NCBI RefSeq assembly: GCF_054482525.1
Contig: NZ_CM137006.1
DNA length: 64,000 bases
Reading direction: 5' to 3' (one strand)
Below, in pieces: positions 6,640 through 15,604 of this stretch (its first letter is position 1; every line of letters begins with the position of its first letter). The notes under the pieces were generated by a model. It was not told the DNA's origin and made no database searches. It worked only from the letters and a program-made list of their open reading frames with translations. Position numbers and translations under genes: made by a program.

Positions 6640-7558
6640 CACGTTATTAACGTTACGCGACGTCCATATCAATTTCCCGGCCCGAAAAAACTGGCTTGGT
6701 AAAACTACGGAACATGTTCATGCCATCAATGGTATTGATTTACAGATCCGTCGTGGTGAAACCTTAGGGATCGTCGGTGAGTCAGGCTGCGGCAAAAGCA
6801 CCCTCGCACAGCTTTTAATGGGTATGCTGCAACCGAGCCACGGGCAGTACATCCGTTCAGGATCACAACGCATTATGCAGATGGTGTTTCAGGACCCGCT
6901 CTCTTCGCTTAATCCACGCTTACCGGTGTGGCGCATCATCACGGAACCGCTCTGGATTGCTAAGCGTAGTAGTGAACAACAGCGGCGAGCGTTGGCAGAG
7001 GAGCTGGCTGTGCAGGTGGGTATTCGTCCGGAGTATCTCGACCGCTTGCCTCATGCGTTTTCCGGCGGGCAGCGGCAACGTATCGCCATTGCCAGAGCAC
7101 TCTCTTCGCAGCCTGACGTGATTGTGCTTGATGAACCAACCTCGGCGCTGGATATCTCCGTGCAGGCGCAGATCCTCAATTTACTGGTAACGCTACAGGA
7201 AAATCGCGAGCTGACTTATGTGTTGATTTCACACAATGTCTCGGTGATACGTCATATGAGCGATCGGGTGGCGGTAATGTATCTCGGACAGATTGTGGAA
7301 CTAGGAGACGCGCAACAGGTGCTGACAGCTCCGGCACATCCATACACCCGATTATTGCTGGATTCCCTCCCCGCCATTGATAAACCGCTGGAGGAAGAAT
7401 GGGCATTACGTAAAACGGATCTACCAGGAAACCGCACGTTGCCACAAGGCTGTTTTTTCCGTGAACGTTGCCCTCTGGCAACCGACGGATGTGAAGTCCG
7501 GCAATCATTAACAATAAGGGAGGACGGACGTGAGATCCGGTGCTGGCGGGCGCTGTAG
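6632..7558 (+). CDS. ddpF: ABC transporter ATP-binding protein
   Basis: ORF 6578..7558; GTG at 6632 gives VSDTLLTLRD N-terminus after GGAGG RBS; Walker A GESGCGKST, signature FSGGQRQR. Confidence 0.85.
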   Translation: MSDTLLTLRDVHINFPARKNWLGKTTEHVHAINGIDLQIRRGETLGIVGESGCGKSTLAQLLMGMLQPSHGQYIRSGSQRIMQMVFQDPLSSLNPRLPVWRIITEPLWIAKRSSEQQRRALAEELAVQVGIRPEYLDRLPHAFSGGQRQRIAIARALSSQPDVIVLDEPTSALDISVQAQILNLLVTLQENRELTYVLISHNVSVIRHMSDRVAVMYLGQIVELGDAQQVLTAPAHPYTRLLLDSLPAIDKPLEEEWALRKTDLPGNRTLPQGCFFRERCPLATDGCEVRQSLTIREDGREIRCWRAL

Positions 7559-7572
7559 GACGCGGCATCCGG

Positions 7573-8484
7573 CTATTGCATGTCTGCGGAAACGTTATGC
7601 GTCATAGTTTTTTTTAACGTTTCCATCAACGCCTGCGCCGCAGTAGAAAGCTTATGGTGTGACGAACGCAGTACGCCTACTCGTCGCTCAATCACTGGAT
7701 TATCCAGTTCCAGACACACTGCGCCCAGTTCGCTCATCTGCCTGCGGCACAGCGCAGGCACAGCGCTTCCTCCCAAACCGTTTGCCACCAGCCGCCCAAC
7801 CGTAACCAGTTGATGGCTTTCCAGCGCCACTTCCAGTTGCGTTCCACTTTGTGCCAACTGCTCCTCCAGCATCAACCTGACGGCTGACGGTCGCTGGAGG
7901 GTGATAAAATCGAGCGTCAGCAAATCCCGCCAACTCACGCGTTGCCGATTTGCCAGTCGTGAATCGGCTGGAACAATAGCGACAAACCGATCCACGCCCA
8001 GTGGGGTAAAATGCACATGGCCGCAATAGTCAGGTTCAAAGGCAATACCCATCTCCACACGCCCTTCGCTCACCATTTCGATCACCTGCTCATTCACCAC
8101 ATCGTGCACGGTGACATTAATCCCTGAATAACAATCGCGGAAGGTTTTCAGCACCGGAGGCAGAACGTTGGCTGCAAATGACGGCATCGCTGCCACCGAG
8201 ACTTTGCCCCGCCTGAGCGTGAATCGCTGACGCATGGCCTCCTCAGTGTTATCCCAGTCAGCCAGCAAAGGCCGTGCCATCGACAATAGCGTTTCCCCCT
8301 CCTGGGTTAATGTCACTTTTCGCGTAGTACGCAGCAGTAAAGCGCCCCCTAAGGCATCTTCCAGTCCTTTAATGGCAAGACTTAGCGCAGGCTGCGACAT
8401 ATTCAGCCGTTCACTGGCATGGGCAAAGTTCAGAGTGTGAGCTACCGCTAAAAACGCGCGTAACTGTTTGATGCTCATTTTCAT
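7573..8484 (-). CDS. LysR-family transcriptional regulator
   Basis: 303 aa; N-terminal HTH (LRAFLAVAHTLNFAHASERLNMSQPALSLAIKGLE) typical of LTTRs; divergent from the downstream catabolic operon. Confidence 0.85.
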   Translation of the reverse strand: MKMSIKQLRAFLAVAHTLNFAHASERLNMSQPALSLAIKGLEDALGGALLLRTTRKVTLTQEGETLLSMARPLLADWDNTEEAMRQRFTLRRGKVSVAAMPSFAANVLPPVLKTFRDCYSGINVTVHDVVNEQVIEMVSEGRVEMGIAFEPDYCGHVHFTPLGVDRFVAIVPADSRLANRQRVSWRDLLTLDFITLQRPSAVRLMLEEQLAQSGTQLEVALESHQLVTVGRLVANGLGGSAVPALCRRQMSELGAVCLELDNPVIERRVGVLRSSHHKLSTAAQALMETLKKTMTHNVSADMQ

Positions 8485-8625
8485 CTGGCACTCCGTTAAC
8501 CTACTGAATACATTTAATTAACATTATATTGATAAATAATACAAATGAATGAGTCACAAATTTAAAATTAACAAATCATTTTTTGCCCTTAATGATGTTG
8601 AAAAGGACAACTGGAGGGCAACTGT
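8485..8625. promoter_or_regulatory. divergent promoter/operator region between LysR regulator and CoA-transferase operon
   Basis: 141 bp AT-rich intergenic region with TTAATTAA palindrome and A/T runs; classic LTTR divergent arrangement. Confidence 0.4.
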
Positions 8626-9333
8626 ATGGCTGGGTTGGATAAACGGGTCGCTACGTATCACGAGGCGCTTGAAGGACTTACCAATGAGATGACGATTCTG
8701 GCAGGAGGTTTTGGCCTGTGCGGCATCCCGGAGAATCTGATTGCTGAAGTTCGCCACCGTGGAGTAACCGGATTAACGGTGGTTTCCAATAACTGTGGCG
8801 TAGATGGTTTTGGACTGGGTGTACTACTGGAAAGCCGACAGATCCGTAAAGTCGTCGCTTCTTATGTTGGCGAGAATGCTTTGTTTGAAAAACAGGTGCT
8901 TAACGGCGAACTGGAGGCGATTCTCACACCACAAGGAACCCTGGCAGAACAACTGCGCGCAGGCGGCGCGGGTATCCCGGCGTTCTTTACTGCCACCGGT
9001 TACGGTACTCCCGTTGCCGAAGGGAAAGAAGTCCGCGAATTCAACGGTCGCCCGTACATCATGGAACAGGCTATCACCGGTGATTTTGCCCTGGTCAAAG
9101 GCTGGAAAGCCGACTGGTACGGCAACGTGATTTATCGTCATACCGCGCAAAACTTCAACCCACTGATGGCGGCTGCCGGAAAAATCACCGTGGTGGAAGT
9201 GGAAGAAATAGTGCCACCTGGTGAACTTGATCCTGCCGCTATCCATACCCCGGGGATTTTTGTTAATCGCGTCATTCAGGGGCAATTTGAAAAACGCATT
9301 GAACAACGCACCCTTAGCCGCAAAGGAGCCTGA
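8626..9333 (+). CDS. 3-oxoacid CoA-transferase subunit A (AtoD/ScoA-like)
   Basis: 235 aa; translation has the family N-terminus ([20 protein letters not shown]) and glycine-rich core. Confidence 0.8.
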
Positions 9334-9335
9334 CC

Positions 9336-9992
9336 ATGTTAACCCGTGAACAAATGGCGATGCGAGTCGCCCGCGAATTGCGCGATGGCTATTACGTCAA
9401 TCTCGGCATTGGTATCCCGACCCTGGTGGCAAACTACATTCCTGACGGGATGGATGTGATGTTGCAGTCAGAAAACGGTTTGCTGGGAATGGGCGCATTT
9501 CCTACGGAAGACGAACTGGACGCCGACATGATTAATGCCGGTAAACAAACCGTTACCGCGCGGAAAGGCGCGGCAATTTTCGATTCGGCGCAATCATTCG
9601 CCATGATCCGTGGCGGTCATGTGGATCTGACTGTACTTGGCGCATTTGAAGTGGATGTGAATGGCAACATTGCCTCATGGATGATCCCCGGCAAGATGGT
9701 TAAAGGCATGGGCGGTGCCATGGATCTGGTTGCCGGTGCCGAGAATATTATTGTGGTAATGACCCACGCCTCCAAATCCGGCGAATCCAAACTGCTTCCT
9801 GACTGTACCCTTCCGTTGACCGGCGCCGGATGCATCAAACGCGTCTTAACCGACCTTGCTCTGCTGGAAATTGCTGACGGAGCTTTCATTCTGCGCGAGC
9901 GCGCGCCGGGAATCAGCGTTGCGGAAATCATCGCCAAAACCGCCGGTAAGTTGTTTGTGCCGGAACATGTCCCGGAAATGCAATTCAACTGA
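9336..9992 (+). CDS. 3-oxoacid CoA-transferase subunit B (AtoA/ScoB-like)
   Basis: 218 aa; starts 3 nt after subunit A stop; family B translation (GMGGAMDLVAGA). Confidence 0.8.
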   Translation: MLTREQMAMRVARELRDGYYVNLGIGIPTLVANYIPDGMDVMLQSENGLLGMGAFPTEDELDADMINAGKQTVTARKGAAIFDSAQSFAMIRGGHVDLTVLGAFEVDVNGNIASWMIPGKMVKGMGGAMDLVAGAENIIVVMTHASKSGESKLLPDCTLPLTGAGCIKRVLTDLALLEIADGAFILRERAPGISVAEIIAKTAGKLFVPEHVPEMQFN

Positions 9993-10001
9993 GGAATCAC
10001 C

Positions 10002-11207
10002 ATGCAGGACGTTGTTATTGTTGCCGCTACGCGCACACCGATTGGCTGTTTTCATGGCGCTCTCGCCCCACTTTCTGCGGTTGATCTCGGCGCTGCCACC
10101 ATCCGTTCATTGCTGGAGAAAACAGCACTTGCAGCAGAACAGATCGACGAAGTGATTTTTGGTCAGGTCCTGACTGCCGGAAGCGGACAAAATCCGGCAC
10201 GGCAATCGGCGCTCAAAGCCGGGTTAAGCCACGATACACCCGCCGTTACCATCAACCTGGTATGTGGTTCCGGTCTGAAAGCAGTACACCAGGCCGTACA
10301 GGCGATCCGTTGCGGTGATGCACAGATAATTATCGCAGGTGGCCAGGAAAGCATGAGTAACGCGCCCTATTTTATTGATGGCGCACGGGCAGGTTTACGC
10401 CTCGGGCATACCAGCATGAAAGACAGCGTGGTGCATGACGGACTATGGGACGCTTTCAATGATTACCACATGGGCATTACTGCAGAAAACCTGGCGCAAA
10501 AATATGCCATCAGTCGCGAGCGACAGGACACATTCGCGCTACGTTCTCAGCAAAAAGCCGCTGCCGCAATGGAAGCCGGGCGCTTTGCAGACGAAATTAC
10601 TCCGGTCAGCGTACCACAAGGTAAAAAACCACCACGCAGGGTAAATACCGACGAACAACCACGTTCCGGGACGCAACTGGAAAAACTAGCACAACTGAAA
10701 CCGGCCTTTCTTCCGGGGGCGGGAAGCGTCACCGCAGGAAATGCTTCTTCCATCAATGATGGTGCCGCCGCAGTCATGTTAATGCGCGCCAGCAAAGCTG
10801 CCGAACTTGGCCTCCCAGTGCTGGCTCGGGTGGCTGGTTATGCCGTTTCTGGCGTCGATCCTGCCTTTATGGGCATTGGTCCGGTCGCCGCTACCCGCGA
10901 ATGTCTTAAGCGTTGCGGATGGACGCTGGAAGATATTGATCTTATTGAAGCCAACGAGGCTTTCGCAGCGCAGGCGCTGGCCGTTGGCGACGAACTGAAC
11001 TGGGATTGCGACAAAGTGAATGTTAACGGCGGCGCAATCGCACTTGGGCATCCTATTGGCGCTTCCGGTTGCCGCATTCTGGTCACTCTCATTTATGAAA
11101 TGGCGCGACGTAATGCGCAAAAAGGGCTGGCGACGCTGTGCGTCGGTGGCGGTCAGGGCGTGGCGCTGACACTGGAAAGAACCACAGGAGAACACCATGC
11201 AAACTGA
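10002..11207 (+). CDS. acetyl-CoA C-acetyltransferase (thiolase II)
   Basis: 401 aa; thiolase translation with active-site regions ([21 protein letters not shown]). Confidence 0.85.
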
Positions 11208-12120
11208 ACAATTTGCGGTACTGGGCGCCGGATTGATGGGCGTGGGGATTGCCACTCATTTCGCCCGCTTTGGTCATGATATCTGGCTGTACGATACCGA
11301 GCAGAGCCGGATTGCAGAAATCCACGTAGTTGCAGGCGGAATTCTTGATGAGCTGATTAGCTGCGAACAGTTTACTGCCCCGGAAAAAGAGAATGTGCTT
11401 AAACGTCTGCACGGCACGACTTCTCTTGCAGACATCGCCGACTCGCAACTACTGATTGAGGCGATCCCGGAGCGACTTGAACTAAAACACGCATTATATA
11501 CCGAGCTTGAAACGCTTATTTCTCCTGAGGCCATTGTCGCCAGCAATACCAGCGGTCTGCCGCCCGATGATCTGGCCGCGAAGATGCGCTACCCGCAACG
11601 ACTGCTGATCGCCCATTTCTGGCATCCGCCGCACTTCATTCCACTTGTGGAGATTATCCCCGGCAGCGTTACCGAGCCAAAGCATTTGCACTGGCTGCAG
11701 CACTTGCTTGTGTCACTGCAACTGGAAGCAGTGTTGCTGGATCGCGCTGCGCCAGGATTTGTCGGCAACCGTCTGCAATTTGCACTGTTGCGTGAAGCCC
11801 TGCATATCGTAAAAAGCGGCATCGCCAGTGCAGAAGTGGTGGATCAGGTGATGCGCGCCTCGCTTGGGCGACGTTATGCCATGGTCGGCCCGCTGGAGGC
11901 CGCCGACATGACCGGACTTTCGACGGTGCAGGATATTTGTCGCCATCTGCTCCCTGAACTAGCGACTGGCAGCGACATGATGTCATTAGTTGCCGAAAAA
12001 GTGGAACGTGGAGACATCGGCGTACGTAGCGGTCAGGGATTTTACTGCTGGGATGAATCGCGGAAGCAGTACATCCAGCAGCGTCGGGAACATCAACTTC
12101 GCTTCGCCCTTAAACCATAA
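11197..12120 (+). CDS. 3-hydroxyacyl-CoA dehydrogenase family protein (NAD-binding)
   Basis: 307 aa; N-terminal Rossmann motif [12 protein letters not shown]; overlaps thiolase stop by 11 nt. Confidence 0.7.
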
Positions 12121-12165
12121 CTTCTCTCGCTGTACCCACTATAACAACGATATTGAGGAGTCCCG

Positions 12166-13557
12166 ATGAGTGTATTAATCGCCCTTGCCGCGCTTGGGCT
12201 GCTAATGCTGGCAGCCTATCGCGGATACAGCGTTATCCTTTTTGCCCCCATCGCAGCATTAGGCGCTGTTCTTGTCACCGATCCGGGGGCCGTTGGCCCA
12301 GCATTTACCGGCCTGTTCATGGAAAAAATGGTCGGCTTCGTGAAATTGTACTTCCCGGTGTTTCTGCTCGGGGCCGTGTTCGGAAAACTGATTGAACTTT
12401 CAGGATTTTCTCGTTCGATTGTCGCTGCTGCAATCAACATTCTCGGCCGGCGGCATGCGATTCCGGTGATTGTGCTGGTATGTGCATTACTCACCTATGG
12501 CGGAGTGTCGCTGTTTGTGGTGGCATTTGCCGTTTATCCGTTCGCGGCTGAACTGTTCCGCCAGAGTAACATCCCAAAACGACTTATACCGGCAACGGTG
12601 GCCCTGGGGGCATTCTCTTTTACTATGGACGCTCTGCCCGGCACGCCACAAATTCAGAACATTATTCCTACCAGTTTCTTTGGCACCAACGCCTGGGCCG
12701 CGCCGTGGCTGGGGCTTATTGGTTCACTGTTTATCATTGCCGTCGGGCTTATCTATCTGGAGCGGCAGCGTCGTAAAGCGCAGGCAAAAAATGAAGGTTA
12801 CGGCACAGAGTTACTTAATGAACCTGAAACACCAGATAACATCAATTTACCGAACCCACTCATTGCGATTTCACCATTGATTCTGGTGGGGCTGTTGAAC
12901 TTGTTGTTTACCTGGTGGATCCCTGTTTGGTACGGTGCGAGCCACCAACTGGAGTTGCCGGGACTTGCCGCCCCGATTACCACAGATGTCGCCAAAATCA
13001 CCGCAATCTGGGCCGTCGAAGCTGCGCTCATTGCCGGAATTTTGCTGGTAGTGATTTTTGGATATCGCAATATTCATGGAAGACTGGCAGAAGGAAGCCG
13101 TACAGCGGTAGGCGGCGCAATTCTGGCTGCGATGAACACCGCCTCAGAATATGGCTTCGGTGCGGTTATCGCCGCCCTACCCGGTTTTCTGGTGCTCTCA
13201 AAGGCGCTGGCCGCCATTCCTGATCCATTACTCAACGAAGCCATCAGCATCACCACACTTGCCGGAATTACCGGTTCAGCGTCCGGCGGGATGAGTATTG
13301 CTCTTGCGGCGATGTCCGACACTTTTATTGCCGCTGCGCACGCTGCCAATATTCCACTGGAAGTTTTTCACCGCGTGGCATCTATGGCCAGTGGCGGCAT
13401 GGATACATTGCCCCATAACGGCGCTGTGATCACCCTGCTGGCAATTACTGGGCTGAGTCACCGTCAGGCTTACGGCGGCATCTTCGCAATTACGATCATT
13501 AAAAGTCTGGCCGTGCTGTTTATCATCGGCGTGTACTACACCACCGGCATTGTCTAA
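12166..13557 (+). CDS. multi-pass permease, probably GntP-family hydroxy-acid (3-hydroxybutyrate) transporter
   Basis: 463 aa, highly hydrophobic with central charged loop; family assignment by resemblance only. Confidence 0.55.
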   Translation: MSVLIALAALGLLMLAAYRGYSVILFAPIAALGAVLVTDPGAVGPAFTGLFMEKMVGFVKLYFPVFLLGAVFGKLIELSGFSRSIVAAAINILGRRHAIPVIVLVCALLTYGGVSLFVVAFAVYPFAAELFRQSNIPKRLIPATVALGAFSFTMDALPGTPQIQNIIPTSFFGTNAWAAPWLGLIGSLFIIAVGLIYLERQRRKAQAKNEGYGTELLNEPETPDNINLPNPLIAISPLILVGLLNLLFTWWIPVWYGASHQLELPGLAAPITTDVAKITAIWAVEAALIAGILLVVIFGYRNIHGRLAEGSRTAVGGAILAAMNTASEYGFGAVIAALPGFLVLSKALAAIPDPLLNEAISITTLAGITGSASGGMSIALAAMSDTFIAAAHAANIPLEVFHRVASMASGGMDTLPHNGAVITLLAITGLSHRQAYGGIFAITIIKSLAVLFIIGVYYTTGIV

Positions 13558-13568
13558 GGAAAATCATC

Positions 13569-14339
13569 ATGAATTTACAAGGTAAAACTGCGCTGGTGAC
13601 GGGGTCCACCAGCGGTATCGGACTCGGTATTGCTCAGACACTGGCAAACGCTGGCGCGCAAGTGATCCTCAACGGCTTCGGTGATGTTGACGCGGCAATC
13701 AATGCGGTTTCTCGTATGGGTAAAACGCCTGGCTATCATGAGGCAGACCTCAGCGATGAATCGCAAATTATCAACATGATGGCCTACGCACGGCGGGAAT
13801 TTGGCGGTGTGGACATTCTGGTGAATAACGCCGGGATCCAGTATGTCTCCCCGGTTGAATCTTTCCCTGTAGAAAAATGGAACGCCATTATCGCTATCAA
13901 TCTCTCTTCTGTCTTTCACACCACGCGTCTGGCACTGCCAGAAATGCGCACTCGTAACTGGGGTCGGATCATTAACATTGCCTCTGTGCATGGGCTGGTA
14001 GCGTCGAAAGACAAATCAGCTTATGTTGCGGCAAAACATGGCGTGGTGGGACTCACAAAGACCATTGCTCTGGAAACTGCGCAGACGGGTATTACCTGCA
14101 ACGCGCTCTGCCCTGGCTGGGTGCTGACGCCGCTGGTACAACAGCAGATTGATAAGCGCATTGCGCAAGGCGAAGATGCGGAAAGCGCGCGTGACGCCTT
14201 ACTGGCAGAAAAACAGCCTTCTCGTGAATTTGTGACTCCGCAACAACTGGGTGAACTGGCGCTGTTTCTCTGTTCGGATGCGGCAGCACAAGTGCGTGGG
14301 GTGGCGTGGAATATGGATGGCGGTTGGGTAGCGCAGTAA
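13569..14339 (+). CDS. bdhA: D-3-hydroxybutyrate dehydrogenase (SDR family)
   Basis: 256 aa; TGSTSGIGLGIA cofactor motif, NNAGIQ, YVAAKHG catalytic motif; close to remembered BdhA sequences. Confidence 0.8.
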   Translation: MNLQGKTALVTGSTSGIGLGIAQTLANAGAQVILNGFGDVDAAINAVSRMGKTPGYHEADLSDESQIINMMAYARREFGGVDILVNNAGIQYVSPVESFPVEKWNAIIAINLSSVFHTTRLALPEMRTRNWGRIINIASVHGLVASKDKSAYVAAKHGVVGLTKTIALETAQTGITCNALCPGWVLTPLVQQQIDKRIAQGEDAESARDALLAEKQPSREFVTPQQLGELALFLCSDAAAQVRGVAWNMDGGWVAQ

Positions 14340-14346
14340 GTGTTCG

Positions 14347-14368
14347 CCGGATGACACGTCATCCGGCA
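14347..14368. terminator. bidirectional hairpin between convergent bdhA and osmC
   Basis: perfect inverted repeat GCCGGATGAC-AC-GTCATCCGGC in the 34 bp gap. Confidence 0.5.
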
Positions 14369-14373
14369 ATGCT

Positions 14374-14805
14374 TTACGATTTCAACTGGTAATCAAGCGT
14401 AATTTCAGCTTTCAGTACCTGAGAAACCGGGCATCCTGCTTTTGCTTTCTGGATGATGCCGTCAAAGGTGGAGGTATCAATACCCGGCACCGCAACTTCG
14501 CTCTTCAGTGCGATTTTAGTAATCGCAAAACCGGCATCCACTTTATCCAGCGACACATCGGCGGTGGTATCAATCGATGTTGGCGTGAATCCCGCTTCCC
14601 CCAGCATTAATGAAAGCGCCATTGAGAAACATGCGGCATGCGCTGCGCCAATCAGTTCTTCAGGGTTGGTTCCTTTTTCGCCTTCAAAACGCGTGTTAAA
14701 TCCATACGGCTGTTGGTTCAGCACGCCACTCTCGGTGGATACTGTTCCCTTCCCGCGTTTGATATCGCCTTCCCAGTGTGCCTGACCTTTCTTATGGATT
14801 GTCAT
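14374..14805 (-). CDS. osmC: osmotically inducible peroxiredoxin
   Basis: 143 aa; translation matches remembered OsmC (MTIHKKGQAHWEGDIKRGKG...). Confidence 0.9.
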   Translation of the reverse strand: MTIHKKGQAHWEGDIKRGKGTVSTESGVLNQQPYGFNTRFEGEKGTNPEELIGAAHAACFSMALSLMLGEAGFTPTSIDTTADVSLDKVDAGFAITKIALKSEVAVPGIDTSTFDGIIQKAKAGCPVSQVLKAEITLDYQLKS

Positions 14806-15149
14806 TGTTGCTCTCCTGTGGGCTTAAAAAGGAAATTATAGACTACGTGAGAAACAGCACGAGGATAAGCAGGATATTCCGAATAAAATCCGGCGAAAAC
14901 ATTATCTCTGTACTTAAATTAAATTCCCACAATAGATAACAGGAAATATATGACTCAAAAGATATTGTATCAATATTAATCGATTCACACCAATAACAAT
15001 CCCTATGAATATCATAGTGTTAAAATATAAAAATTATCAACCAGGACTAATCTTAACAACGAAGCGGCAAATATTTGCCATGCTGAATGTGCTTTATAAA
15101 TCTGCGATCCGTAGCAGACACCATAAATACACAGACACGGAGAATCACT

Positions 15150-15365
15150 ATGTTTACTTATTATCAGGCAGAAAATTCAACAGCAGAACCCGCTCTGGTT
15201 AATGCCATTGAGCAAGGCCTTCGGGCAGAGCACGGTGTTGTCACTGAAGATGACATTCTCATGGAGCTGACCAAATGGGTGGAAGCTTCTGATAACGACA
15301 TCCTCAGTGATATCTACCAGCAAACGATCAATTATGTGGTCAGTGGCCAGCACCCTACGCTTTAA
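15150..15365 (+). CDS. bdm: biofilm-dependent modulation protein
   Basis: internal ATG of ORF 15087..15365 gives 71 aa MFTYYQAENSTAEP...; divergent from osmC. Confidence 0.85.
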   Translation: MFTYYQAENSTAEPALVNAIEQGLRAEHGVVTEDDILMELTKWVEASDNDILSDIYQQTINYVVSGQHPTL

Positions 15366-15466
15366 GGTGCTATGCTTGATCGGCAACCTAATTTAGGGGT
15401 TTAGCACGTGTTTCTTCGCTACGGCGATGTTGTCCTTAAAACTAGCAACAGGATTGAGGAGTTAAA

Positions 15467-15604
15467 ATGAAATCGAACCGTCAGGCACGTCATATTCTTG
15501 GACTGGACCATAAAATTTCTAACCAGCGCAAAATAGTTACCGAAGGTGACAAATCCAGCGTGGTAAATAACCCAACCGGCAGAAAACGCCCCTCTGAAAA
15601 GTAA
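15467..15604 (+). CDS. sra: stationary-phase ribosome-associated protein (45 aa)
   Basis: hand-translated small [48 protein letters not shown] with GAGGAG RBS; below ORF-track size cutoff. Confidence 0.8.

Follow-up and report, generated by a model that had tools for sequence, protein, structure and literature searches.

Upstream of a CoA-transferase operon in this stretch of DNA lies a short, A+T-rich spacer that is shared with a divergently oriented gene for a LysR-type regulator, and the question that it raises is whether the spacer is the switch of the operon and, if so, which of its bases matter. The window, which here means the whole stretch of 64,000 nucleotides that was analysed, belongs to an Escherichia coli chromosome, and its positions 7400-9400 are 100% identical to those of strains 19KM1776 and PCN033. 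Our main reading, to which we assign a probability of about three in four, is that a DhcR-type LysR regulator and a six-gene operon share the spacer as their control region; the binding of the regulator, the transcription starts, the autoregulation and the inducer are what we infer from comparison with related loci.

The accessory module and its regulator

The spacer is part of a seven-gene, 6.8-kb accessory module inserted between ddpF, the open reading frame of which ends at 7558, and osmC (14374-14805, minus strand). Of 5426 complete E. coli genomes, 231 carry this module, and 219 of these have a control region at least 99% identical to that of the window. A second copy of the module in strain 23CRST013, 88.5% identical, is located in a different island. 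The G+C content of the module is approximately 0.53-0.55, as in its flanks, with the exception of the spacer, for which the A/T-richness claimed from the letters alone was borne out (70.2% A+T versus 49% across the window). A literature search found no paper on the E. coli island.

The claimed length of 141 bp between the LysR gene and the first CoA-transferase gene (8485-8625) was confirmed by the open reading frames on either side, at 7573-8484 on the minus strand and at 8626-9333 on the plus strand. The regulator gene, identified from its open reading frame and Pfam domains, encodes 303 amino acids counted from the first ATG. The start conserved in all homologues is Met3, and the spacer measures 147 bp if the regulator starts there.

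The CoA-transferase operon consists of six plus-strand genes (8626-14339). They encode subunit A (dhcA/scoA-type; 8626-9333; TIGR02429, 245 bits) and subunit B (9336-9992; TIGR02428, 327 bits) of a 3-oxoacid CoA-transferase, an acetyl-CoA C-acetyltransferase (thiolase; 10002-11207; TIGR01930, 501 bits), a 3-hydroxyacyl-CoA dehydrogenase family protein (11197-12120; Pfam 3HCDH_N and 3HCDH), a permease (12166-13557; GntP family according to the RefSeq annotation) and a 3-hydroxybutyrate dehydrogenase (13569-14339; NF009093, 371 bits, and TIGR01963, 343 bits), each score in bits being above the cut-off of its model. No NCBIfam equivalog was found at cut-off for the 3-hydroxyacyl-CoA dehydrogenase family protein, and the permease had no NCBIfam match and no significant Pfam match. 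The intergenic gaps range from -11 to 45 nt, the negative value being an overlap of the start of the 3-hydroxyacyl-CoA dehydrogenase family gene with the stop of the thiolase gene by 11 nt, and a terminator scan of the island gave no signal above chance. Thus, it is plausible that the six genes form one transcription unit. An Rfam scan of positions 7000-15500 at E <= 1 gave no match, hence no riboswitch or known leader.

Two Pfam domains were found in the regulator, HTH_1 at the N-terminus (PF00126, 72.9 bits, cut-off 26.6) and LysR_substrate at the C-terminus (PF03466, 142.2 bits, cut-off 28). There is no NCBIfam equivalog for DhcR or for this regulator, the best model being PsrA, far below its cut-off. 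Solved structures were considered as a guide to DNA recognition, and the nearest, OxyR (E ~1e-20), was of no help. Residues 30-42 (SQPALSL-I--LE) are invariant in 14 aligned homologues and occupy what we take to be the position of the LTTR recognition helix; a shared operator is therefore expected.

Many of the regulator homologues carry the source label "carnitine catabolism transcriptional activator", and the regulator is 67% identical, over 288 amino acids without gaps, to DhcR (PA1998) of Pseudomonas aeruginosa. The P. aeruginosa member was found through protein cluster names and locus neighbours. At its locus (L083), dhcR is followed by dhcA, dhcB, atoB, atoE and, further on, bdhA, with ppiC1 on the other side, and the neighbours (ppiC1, an AMP-binding enzyme, dhcA, dhcB, atoB, a SCFA transporter and bdhA) match PA1996-PA2003 of PAO1, as named in PMC6235884 and in the supplement of PMC8041468, which identifies the gene as PA1998. 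DhcR is described in PMC3602303 and PMC6235884 as the inducer of dhcAB, and according to PMC3602303, which cites Wargo and Hogan 2009, this induction responds to 3-dehydrocarnitine, in the course of carnitine breakdown.

Conserved elements of the spacer

Starting from the alignment of the 14 regulator homologues, we collected 80 related loci from a data set with one genome per species: one from E. coli, seven from Citrobacter, Enterobacter, Serratia, Pluralibacter and Pantoea, about 45 from Pseudomonas and about 15 from Halomonas/Billgrantia. The regulator gene is divergent from the gene for CoA-transferase A in 77 of the 80 loci, usually with the genes for subunit B and thiolase next, and the remaining three loci are cut or fragmented. 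The orthologous spacers are mostly 98-183 bp in length. Those of Enterobacterales (17 spacers) could be aligned without gaps from 8485 to approximately 8614, and all 77 were placed in register on the hexamer TTAACA (8568 = offset 0). Dyads were ranked by an unbiased scan for conserved dyad symmetry, the score being the number of complementary pairs out of five, and the chance baseline for single words was a set of 2000 dinucleotide-preserving shuffles of the spacer.

The conserved blocks of the spacer span three bacterial orders (those of Enterobacterales, Pseudomonas and Halomonas), and this conservation excludes chance A+T-rich sequence without function. Conservation across species is the strongest signal in the spacer. 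The proposal that this is a divergent LysR/operon control region acting as the switch of the island is well supported by the comparison, namely by the divergent arrangement in 77 of 80 loci, the LysR domains, the conserved blocks and the kinship with DhcR. The sequence-only reading was partly supported overall, being right in general and wrong on which bases matter.

The element that it had singled out, the palindrome TTAATTAA, is indeed present in the spacer (8514-8521). However, an 8-nt palindrome of some kind is present in 57% of the shuffles and the exact word TTAATTAA in 3%, and perfect dyads with 6-nt arms are as frequent as expected from the shuffles (1 observed, 0.94 expected). In the Enterobacterales alignment, the left half of TTAATTAA is variable in Citrobacter, Enterobacter, Serratia and Pluralibacter, and TTAAC(A) at 8518-8523 is kept, so that only the right part of the palindrome is conserved, as TTAAC (8518-8522). 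The module copy of strain 23CRST013 has TTAATTCA in its place, and Pseudomonas has no counterpart of the region, the start codon of the regulator being at that position. The shuffles and the conservation rule out TTAATTAA as a significant palindrome, and it is not the conserved unit. Repetition within the spacer does exceed chance: there are three copies of TTAAC (8496, 8518 and 8568, spaced by 22 and 50 bp; p = 0.004 from the shuffles), and AATTAACA occurs twice, 50 bp apart, as in 0 of 2000 shuffles.

A near-invariant core block, box D (AAAATTAACAAAT, 8564-8576), has the consensus AAA(A/C)TTAACAAAT and is the candidate activation site. At every position of TTAACAAAT, 74-77 of the 77 spacers agree, and the 12-mer AA(A/C)TTAACAAAT is found exactly once per locus of 5-9 kb in 72 of 81 loci, always inside this spacer. 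Box D contains the predicted -35 hexamer of the operon, TTAACA (8568-8573), and exactly 17 nt downstream is the hexamer AATGAT (8591-8596), a weak match to the -10 consensus. The sigma-70 promoter TTAACA-17 nt-AATGAT (8568-8596, plus strand), predicted from a promoter scan and from conservation, is the only promoter-like match in the spacer at the threshold of the scan, and the only candidate with both hexamers conserved at fixed spacing in all taxa. In the -10-like hexamer, the two key positions, A2 and T6, are unchanged in 75 of 77 spacers each, and the flanks are unconserved in the G+C-rich Pseudomonas and Halomonas; elsewhere it reads GAAGAT or GAAGCT (Pseudomonas) or (A/G)ACACT (mainly Halomonas). 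A weak -10 fits an activator-dependent promoter. This promoter predicts a start of the operon near 8603 and a leader of approximately 23 nt, in which the Shine-Dalgarno sequence of the first gene, GGAGGG (8613-8618, plus strand), can be read 7 nt before the ATG at 8626.

The -10-like hexamer is also an arm of a dyad across the promoter spacer and the -10, ATCATT-N10-AATGAT (8575-8596, centre 8585.5), which scores 4.12/5 in Enterobacterales and is not conserved in Pseudomonas. It is possibly a promoter-proximal LysR subsite, or else a pair of -10-like hexamers belonging to two divergent promoters. No CRP site was found in the spacer within three mismatches, and a sigma-54 promoter was rejected, the best match in the spacer having three mismatches. 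A competing plus-strand promoter candidate, TACAAA-17-TAAAAT (8540-8568), was noted, as was a minus-strand candidate carrying AATGAT.

We give very little credence to an account in which the operon would be transcribed from TACAAA-17-TAAAAT, starting near 8575, and would be partly controlled by a leader hairpin, formed by 8583-8589 and 8615-8621, in which the ribosome-binding site is hidden. TAAAAT agrees with the -10 consensus at five of six positions, and the Shine-Dalgarno sequence GGAGGG is overlapped by a perfect inverted repeat of 7 bp, TTGCCCT/AGGGCAA, which is a stem in the MFE fold. However, the fold is no better than those of shuffled sequences (z = -1.2, with 23 of 200 shuffles folding as well), for which reason the hairpin (8583-8621) was rejected; its left arm is unconserved outside close relatives, and no Rfam family matches it. 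The -35 hexamer TACAAA is poor and unconserved, and a start near 8575 would leave the conserved hexamer at +23 to +28 unexplained.

Upstream of the preferred promoter, TTAACA-17-AATGAT, the comparison points to a dyad with the consensus ATTnAT-N11-ATnAAT, the arms of which are at -40 to -35 and -23 to -18 relative to TTAACA. In the window, it reads ATTGAT-N11-ATGAAT (8528-8550, centre 8539; T8533 and A8545 form its T-N11-A) and is the candidate recognition site (RBS). Among the 77 spacers, the right arm is conserved as A75 T67 n A76 A69 T70 and the left arm as A71 T70 T64 n A60 T69, although the left arm overlaps the start codon of the regulator in many Pseudomonas, which explains 2 of its 6 conserved positions. 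The dyad ranked at the top in Pseudomonas/Halomonas (3.35/5 versus a background of 1.32 +/- 0.52) and was recovered in Enterobacterales too (3.59/5 versus 1.50 +/- 0.74); its pattern has one match in the 64-kb window, versus 0.14 expected. It is perfect in E. coli locus L002 (ATTAAT-N11-ATTAAT) and imperfect in the window, where ATTGAT and ATGAAT are complementary at 4/6 positions. The P. aeruginosa spacer reads ATTTAT-N11-ATCAAT-N17-TTAACAAAT-N14-GAAGCT, with the same spacings as in the window.

Relative to the predicted start at approximately 8603, the centre of this dyad would be at about -64, and box D lies over the predicted -35. The canonical LysR layout has a recognition site near -65 and an activation site at -35 (PMC8407307), and the two elements would match it. 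Canonical LysR divergent promoters (CbnR/cbnA, BenM/benA, IlvY/ilvC) are like the spacer in having a divergent regulator and a T-N11-A dyad, here some 64 bp before the predicted start; a second, candidate site over the predicted -35, a weak -10 and a putative regulator promoter that overlaps the operator would be further points of likeness (PMC8407307). The centres of the two arms are separated by 17 bp, more than the 11 bp that is usual for a LysR dimer site. With its arms outside the T-N11-A, the 23-bp site is nearer to the AlsR site, TAAT-N11-ATTA, than to ATAC-N7-GTAT. The expectation of an LTTR box of the form T-N11-A holds to the extent that one is contained in a conserved dyad at the appropriate distance from the predicted start; the bare pattern is near chance in the spacer (22 observed versus 15.7 +/- 2.8 in the shuffles) and nearly uninformative in A+T-rich DNA.

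The literature search brought up no footprints, mapped starts, binding assays or reporter results for the spacer or for any orthologue of it. No published DhcR-family operator motif was found either: the supplementary files searched of the HT-SELEX atlas that cloned DhcR give no PWM for it, and the ChIP-seq compendium does not mention DhcR.

Additional dyads and the probable promoter of the regulator

A+T-rich, self-complementary hexamers yield many overlapping dyads in the spacer, so the assignment of sites is not unique, and several dyads are specific to Enterobacterales. Box A (GTTAAC, 8495-8500), whose TTAAC is conserved within Enterobacterales (17 spacers) but not beyond them, lies just upstream of the Shine-Dalgarno sequence of the regulator and pairs with 8517-8521 as the dyad TTAAC-N16-(A/G)TTAA (centre 8508.5), which scores 4.18/5 in Enterobacterales versus a background of 1.50 +/- 0.74. 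A second dyad, ATTAAC-N5-ATTGAT (8517-8533, centre 8525), conserved in Enterobacterales as ATTAA-N7-TT(G/A)AT, would be centred at about -78 and is a candidate for an extra or alternative LysR site. It is missing in Pseudomonas, where the position is coding sequence. These TTAAC dyads (8495-8533), located in the longer leader of the Enterobacterales regulator gene, are probably additional sites for the DhcR-type regulator.

It has also to be considered that the dyad at 8517-8533, in the form ATTAAC-N5-ATT(G/A)AT, is itself the recognition site, in which case the spacer would still be LysR-controlled, the right half of TTAATTAA would belong to the operator, and the N11 dyad would be a by-product of repeated ATTAAT-like hexamers. 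The dyad scores 3.94/5 among the 17 Enterobacterales spacers and has half-sites at the canonical spacing of 11 bp; in most Enterobacterales species it is a perfect ATTAA-N7-TTAAT with a T-N11-A within the arms, and the repeats of TTAAC at 8496, 8518 and 8568, 22 and 50 bp apart, favour a site at this position. Nevertheless, we consider this assignment rather unlikely, given that the site is missing from Pseudomonas, including P. aeruginosa, where DhcR works, and that the invariant SQPALSL-I--LE argues for one shared operator. Its centre is further upstream than usual, and the second E. coli copy has TTCACA instead of TTAACA within this region.

Box D, which the preferred reading treats as activation site and operon -35, may have a further role. 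On the minus strand it reads TGTTAATTT, an extended -10-like sequence directed toward the regulator gene, and within the minus-strand core TGTTAA(T/G)TT, the TG, the first T, the A and the last T fall on invariant positions. In Pseudomonas, the ATG of the regulator is only about 40 bp to the left of TTAACA, over the left arm of the N11 dyad, and the promoter of the regulator must therefore overlap the core. On this comparison, the promoter of the regulator gene most likely has TGTTAATTT as its core. CATTCA-17-TATAAT (8551-8523, minus strand) was rejected as the main regulator promoter: its -10 is perfect here, but it is unconserved even in the second E. coli. In Pseudomonas carbonaria (L022), an insertion of 2.7 kb parts the regulator gene from the operon, and each side has its own copy of the dyad and the core block, as a result of duplication; retention of both copies is expected if both promoters depend on the dyad and the core block.

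The double reading of box D is also the starting point of an account without a LysR operator, in which the conserved blocks would be the core parts of two overlapping divergent promoters, namely hexamers and A-tract or UP-like elements, or else sites for IHF, Fis or H-NS on A+T-rich acquired DNA, with the LysR protein binding elsewhere or weakly. One strand of box D can supply a -35 and the opposite strand an extended -10, with A-tracts at the flanks of the box; there are IHF-core-like matches at 8522-8534 and 8569-8581, with one mismatch each; and the A+T content of 70% fits nucleoid proteins. However, promoter hexamers alone are rarely invariant over 13 nt across three orders, promoters alone do not account for a conserved dyad whose register is fixed some 30 bp ahead of the -35, and a weak -10 is typical of activator-dependent promoters. 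In addition, the P. aeruginosa orthologue of this promoter is reported in PMC3602303 to be induced in dependence on DhcR. We regard this account as quite improbable.

If the main reading is correct, a tetramer of the regulator would anchor on ATTGAT-N11-ATGAAT (8528-8550, at about -64) and would also touch the AAAATTAACAAAT block (8564-8576) that overlaps the -35 of the weak promoter. With the inducer bound, the regulator would recruit RNA polymerase to this promoter with its poor -10, and the operon would be activated. Occupancy of the operator would also lower the synthesis of the regulator, by autorepression via the overlapping promoter, and the extra dyads of Enterobacterales would be accessory sites in the longer leader of the regulator gene.

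Inducer, function and related systems

The DhcR/dhcAB-atoB-atoE system of P. aeruginosa also has a divergent regulator and a two-subunit CoA-transferase followed by thiolase, and its spacer has the same layout of dyad, 17 nt, TTAACAAAT and a weak -10 located 17 nt after TTAACA. In contrast, the E. coli operon adds a hydroxyacyl-CoA dehydrogenase family gene, a different permease and 3-hydroxybutyrate dehydrogenase under one promoter. In P. aeruginosa, bdhA lies past atoE on the other strand and does not belong to the dhcA operon; a sigma-54 activator presumably controls it. Compared with the spacer of P. aeruginosa, that of E. coli is approximately 10 bp longer (141 versus 131 bp), and the start codon of its regulator is approximately 44 bp further from the core, which leaves room for the extra TTAAC dyads. 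An A-rich leader of the Crc type is present in Pseudomonas and absent from the E. coli spacer.

The E. coli module also differs from the DhcR system in having no linked carnitine genes, and among the operon proteins no NCBIfam model for a carnitine dehydrogenase or cleavage enzyme matched at cut-off. Because the operon encodes a permease and a 3-hydroxybutyrate dehydrogenase and no carnitine-specific family at cut-off, acetoacetate is the likeliest signal; the inducer is most likely this compound or a closely related 3-oxo or 3-hydroxy acid. Carnitine breakdown is currently considered to yield acetoacetate by way of a cleavage enzyme (10.1101/2021.12.09.472016), and P. putida requires atoAB for growth on substrates whose breakdown runs via 3-hydroxybutyrate or acetoacetate (10.1101/2020.07.04.188060). 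The P. putida atoAB genes encode the same two-subunit 3-oxoacid CoA-transferase as dhcAB, and orthology of the two pairs is presumed. Judging from its predicted enzymes, the operon most likely serves to burn the ketone bodies acetoacetate and 3-hydroxybutyrate and is switched on by the DhcR-type regulator. The comparison suggests that DhcR-type regulators sense ketoacids of the acetoacetate type and not a carnitine-specific signal.

The spacer would then be a DhcR-type LysR switch of canonical layout, of which two parts may be new, the operator and the E. coli-specific fusion to a full 3-hydroxybutyrate/acetoacetate operon. It is possible, though we would not count on it, that phylogenetic footprinting here defines for the first time the operator of the DhcR family, as ATTnAT-N11-ATnAAT plus AAA(A/C)TTAACAAAT, in which the -35, the activation site and the regulator promoter would coincide across Enterobacterales, Pseudomonas and Halomonas, and which a minority of E. 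coli would have coupled to a complete operon for uptake and oxidation of ketone bodies. If so, the locus would provide a compact, portable sensor of acetoacetate or 3-hydroxybutyrate, and possibly a trait of host adaptation. To our knowledge, E. coli K-12 has no route to use 3-hydroxybutyrate. The island would give such a route to about 4% of sequenced E. coli, which could be relevant where a host or tissue has abundant ketone bodies, and the 141-bp fragment together with the regulator could serve as a small biosensor cassette. The understanding of LysR-type switches is unchanged by these findings, and their practical value is modest: they supply testable operator and promoter coordinates for an uncharacterised accessory operon of E. 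coli and tie it to the experimentally studied DhcR system.

The AtoSC-AtoDAEB system of E. coli K-12 does the same job, with a two-subunit CoA-transferase and a thiolase that convert acetoacetate via acetoacetyl-CoA to two acetyl-CoA. AtoSC is a two-component system with a sigma-54 activator. The K-12 system differs from the module in having no 3-hydroxybutyrate dehydrogenase, and the spacer differs in turn in having no sigma-54 promoter (best match with 3 mismatches). A sub-threshold NCBIfam match to acetate CoA-transferase subunit alpha is present in the operon.

Distribution and apparent mobility of the module

The DhcR-type LysR regulator gene and the six-gene operon together constitute an accessory insertion of 6.8 kb between ddpF and osmC (window 7559-14373). 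Of 5426 complete E. coli genomes, only 231 carry this insertion, whose G+C content resembles that of the flanking DNA. The regulator gene (stop at 7573) is convergent with ddpF (stop at 7558), their stops being 14 bp apart, and no terminator-like hairpin was found in this 14-bp intergenic gap. Immediately beyond osmC, the G+C content drops to 0.40-0.43 (14600-15600); this stretch is the counterpart of the bdm and sra region in the matching RefSeq genome (L001), and the dip has no connection with the island.

The module, i.e. regulator, control region and operon, is also present as a second, diverged copy in one E. coli strain, 23CRST013 (L082 8168-14300), with a control region of 88.5% identity and without the gene of the hydroxyacyl-CoA dehydrogenase family. 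The diverged copy occupies a different island, where its neighbours are an integrase, IS fragments and a PapB-type regulator, so the module appears to be mobile as a single unit.

Regulator start codon and control region

The N-terminus of the regulator ORF reads MKM (8476-8484). Met3 (the ATG at 8476-8478) is the sole start conserved across all homologues, and the upstream ATG is retained in Enterobacterales, with GGAG 6 nt ahead of it; the spacer to the divergent operon is therefore 141 or 147 bp, according to which start applies. In P. carbonaria (L022 1258-4000), the regulator gene and the CoA-transferase operon are parted by a 2.7-kb insertion encoding a protein of about 800 amino acids, and the control region is duplicated; a vestige of the regulator's start codon survives in the copy on the operon side. 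In the dhcA leaders of Pseudomonas (loci L023-L081; 5870-5930 of the P. aeruginosa dhcR-dhcA locus, L083), the ribosome-binding site is adjoined by A-rich motifs, for instance AACAACTACAAAAGG or AATAAAAGAGG, which fits the Crc-dependent post-transcriptional repression reported for dhcAB-atoB (PMC6235884). The CoA-transferase leader of E. coli, unlike these, has no such motifs.

Permease and hydroxyacyl-CoA dehydrogenase-family genes

The 463-aa product of 12166-13557, a GntP-family permease according to its RefSeq annotation, had no match in NCBIfam and no significant match in Pfam (DUF3169 was sub-threshold only), whereas the transporter of the P. aeruginosa dhcA operon is of the SCFA_trans (AtoE) type. 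The last 11 nt of the thiolase gene (11197-11207) are also the first 11 nt of the hydroxyacyl-CoA dehydrogenase-family gene, an overlap which suggests that the two are translationally coupled. The dehydrogenase-family protein matched no NCBIfam equivalog, and among its best sub-threshold NCBIfam matches are those to a dehydrogenase of the pyridoxine pathway and to L-carnitine dehydrogenase. Its substrate could be (S)-3-hydroxybutyrate or the CoA ester thereof.
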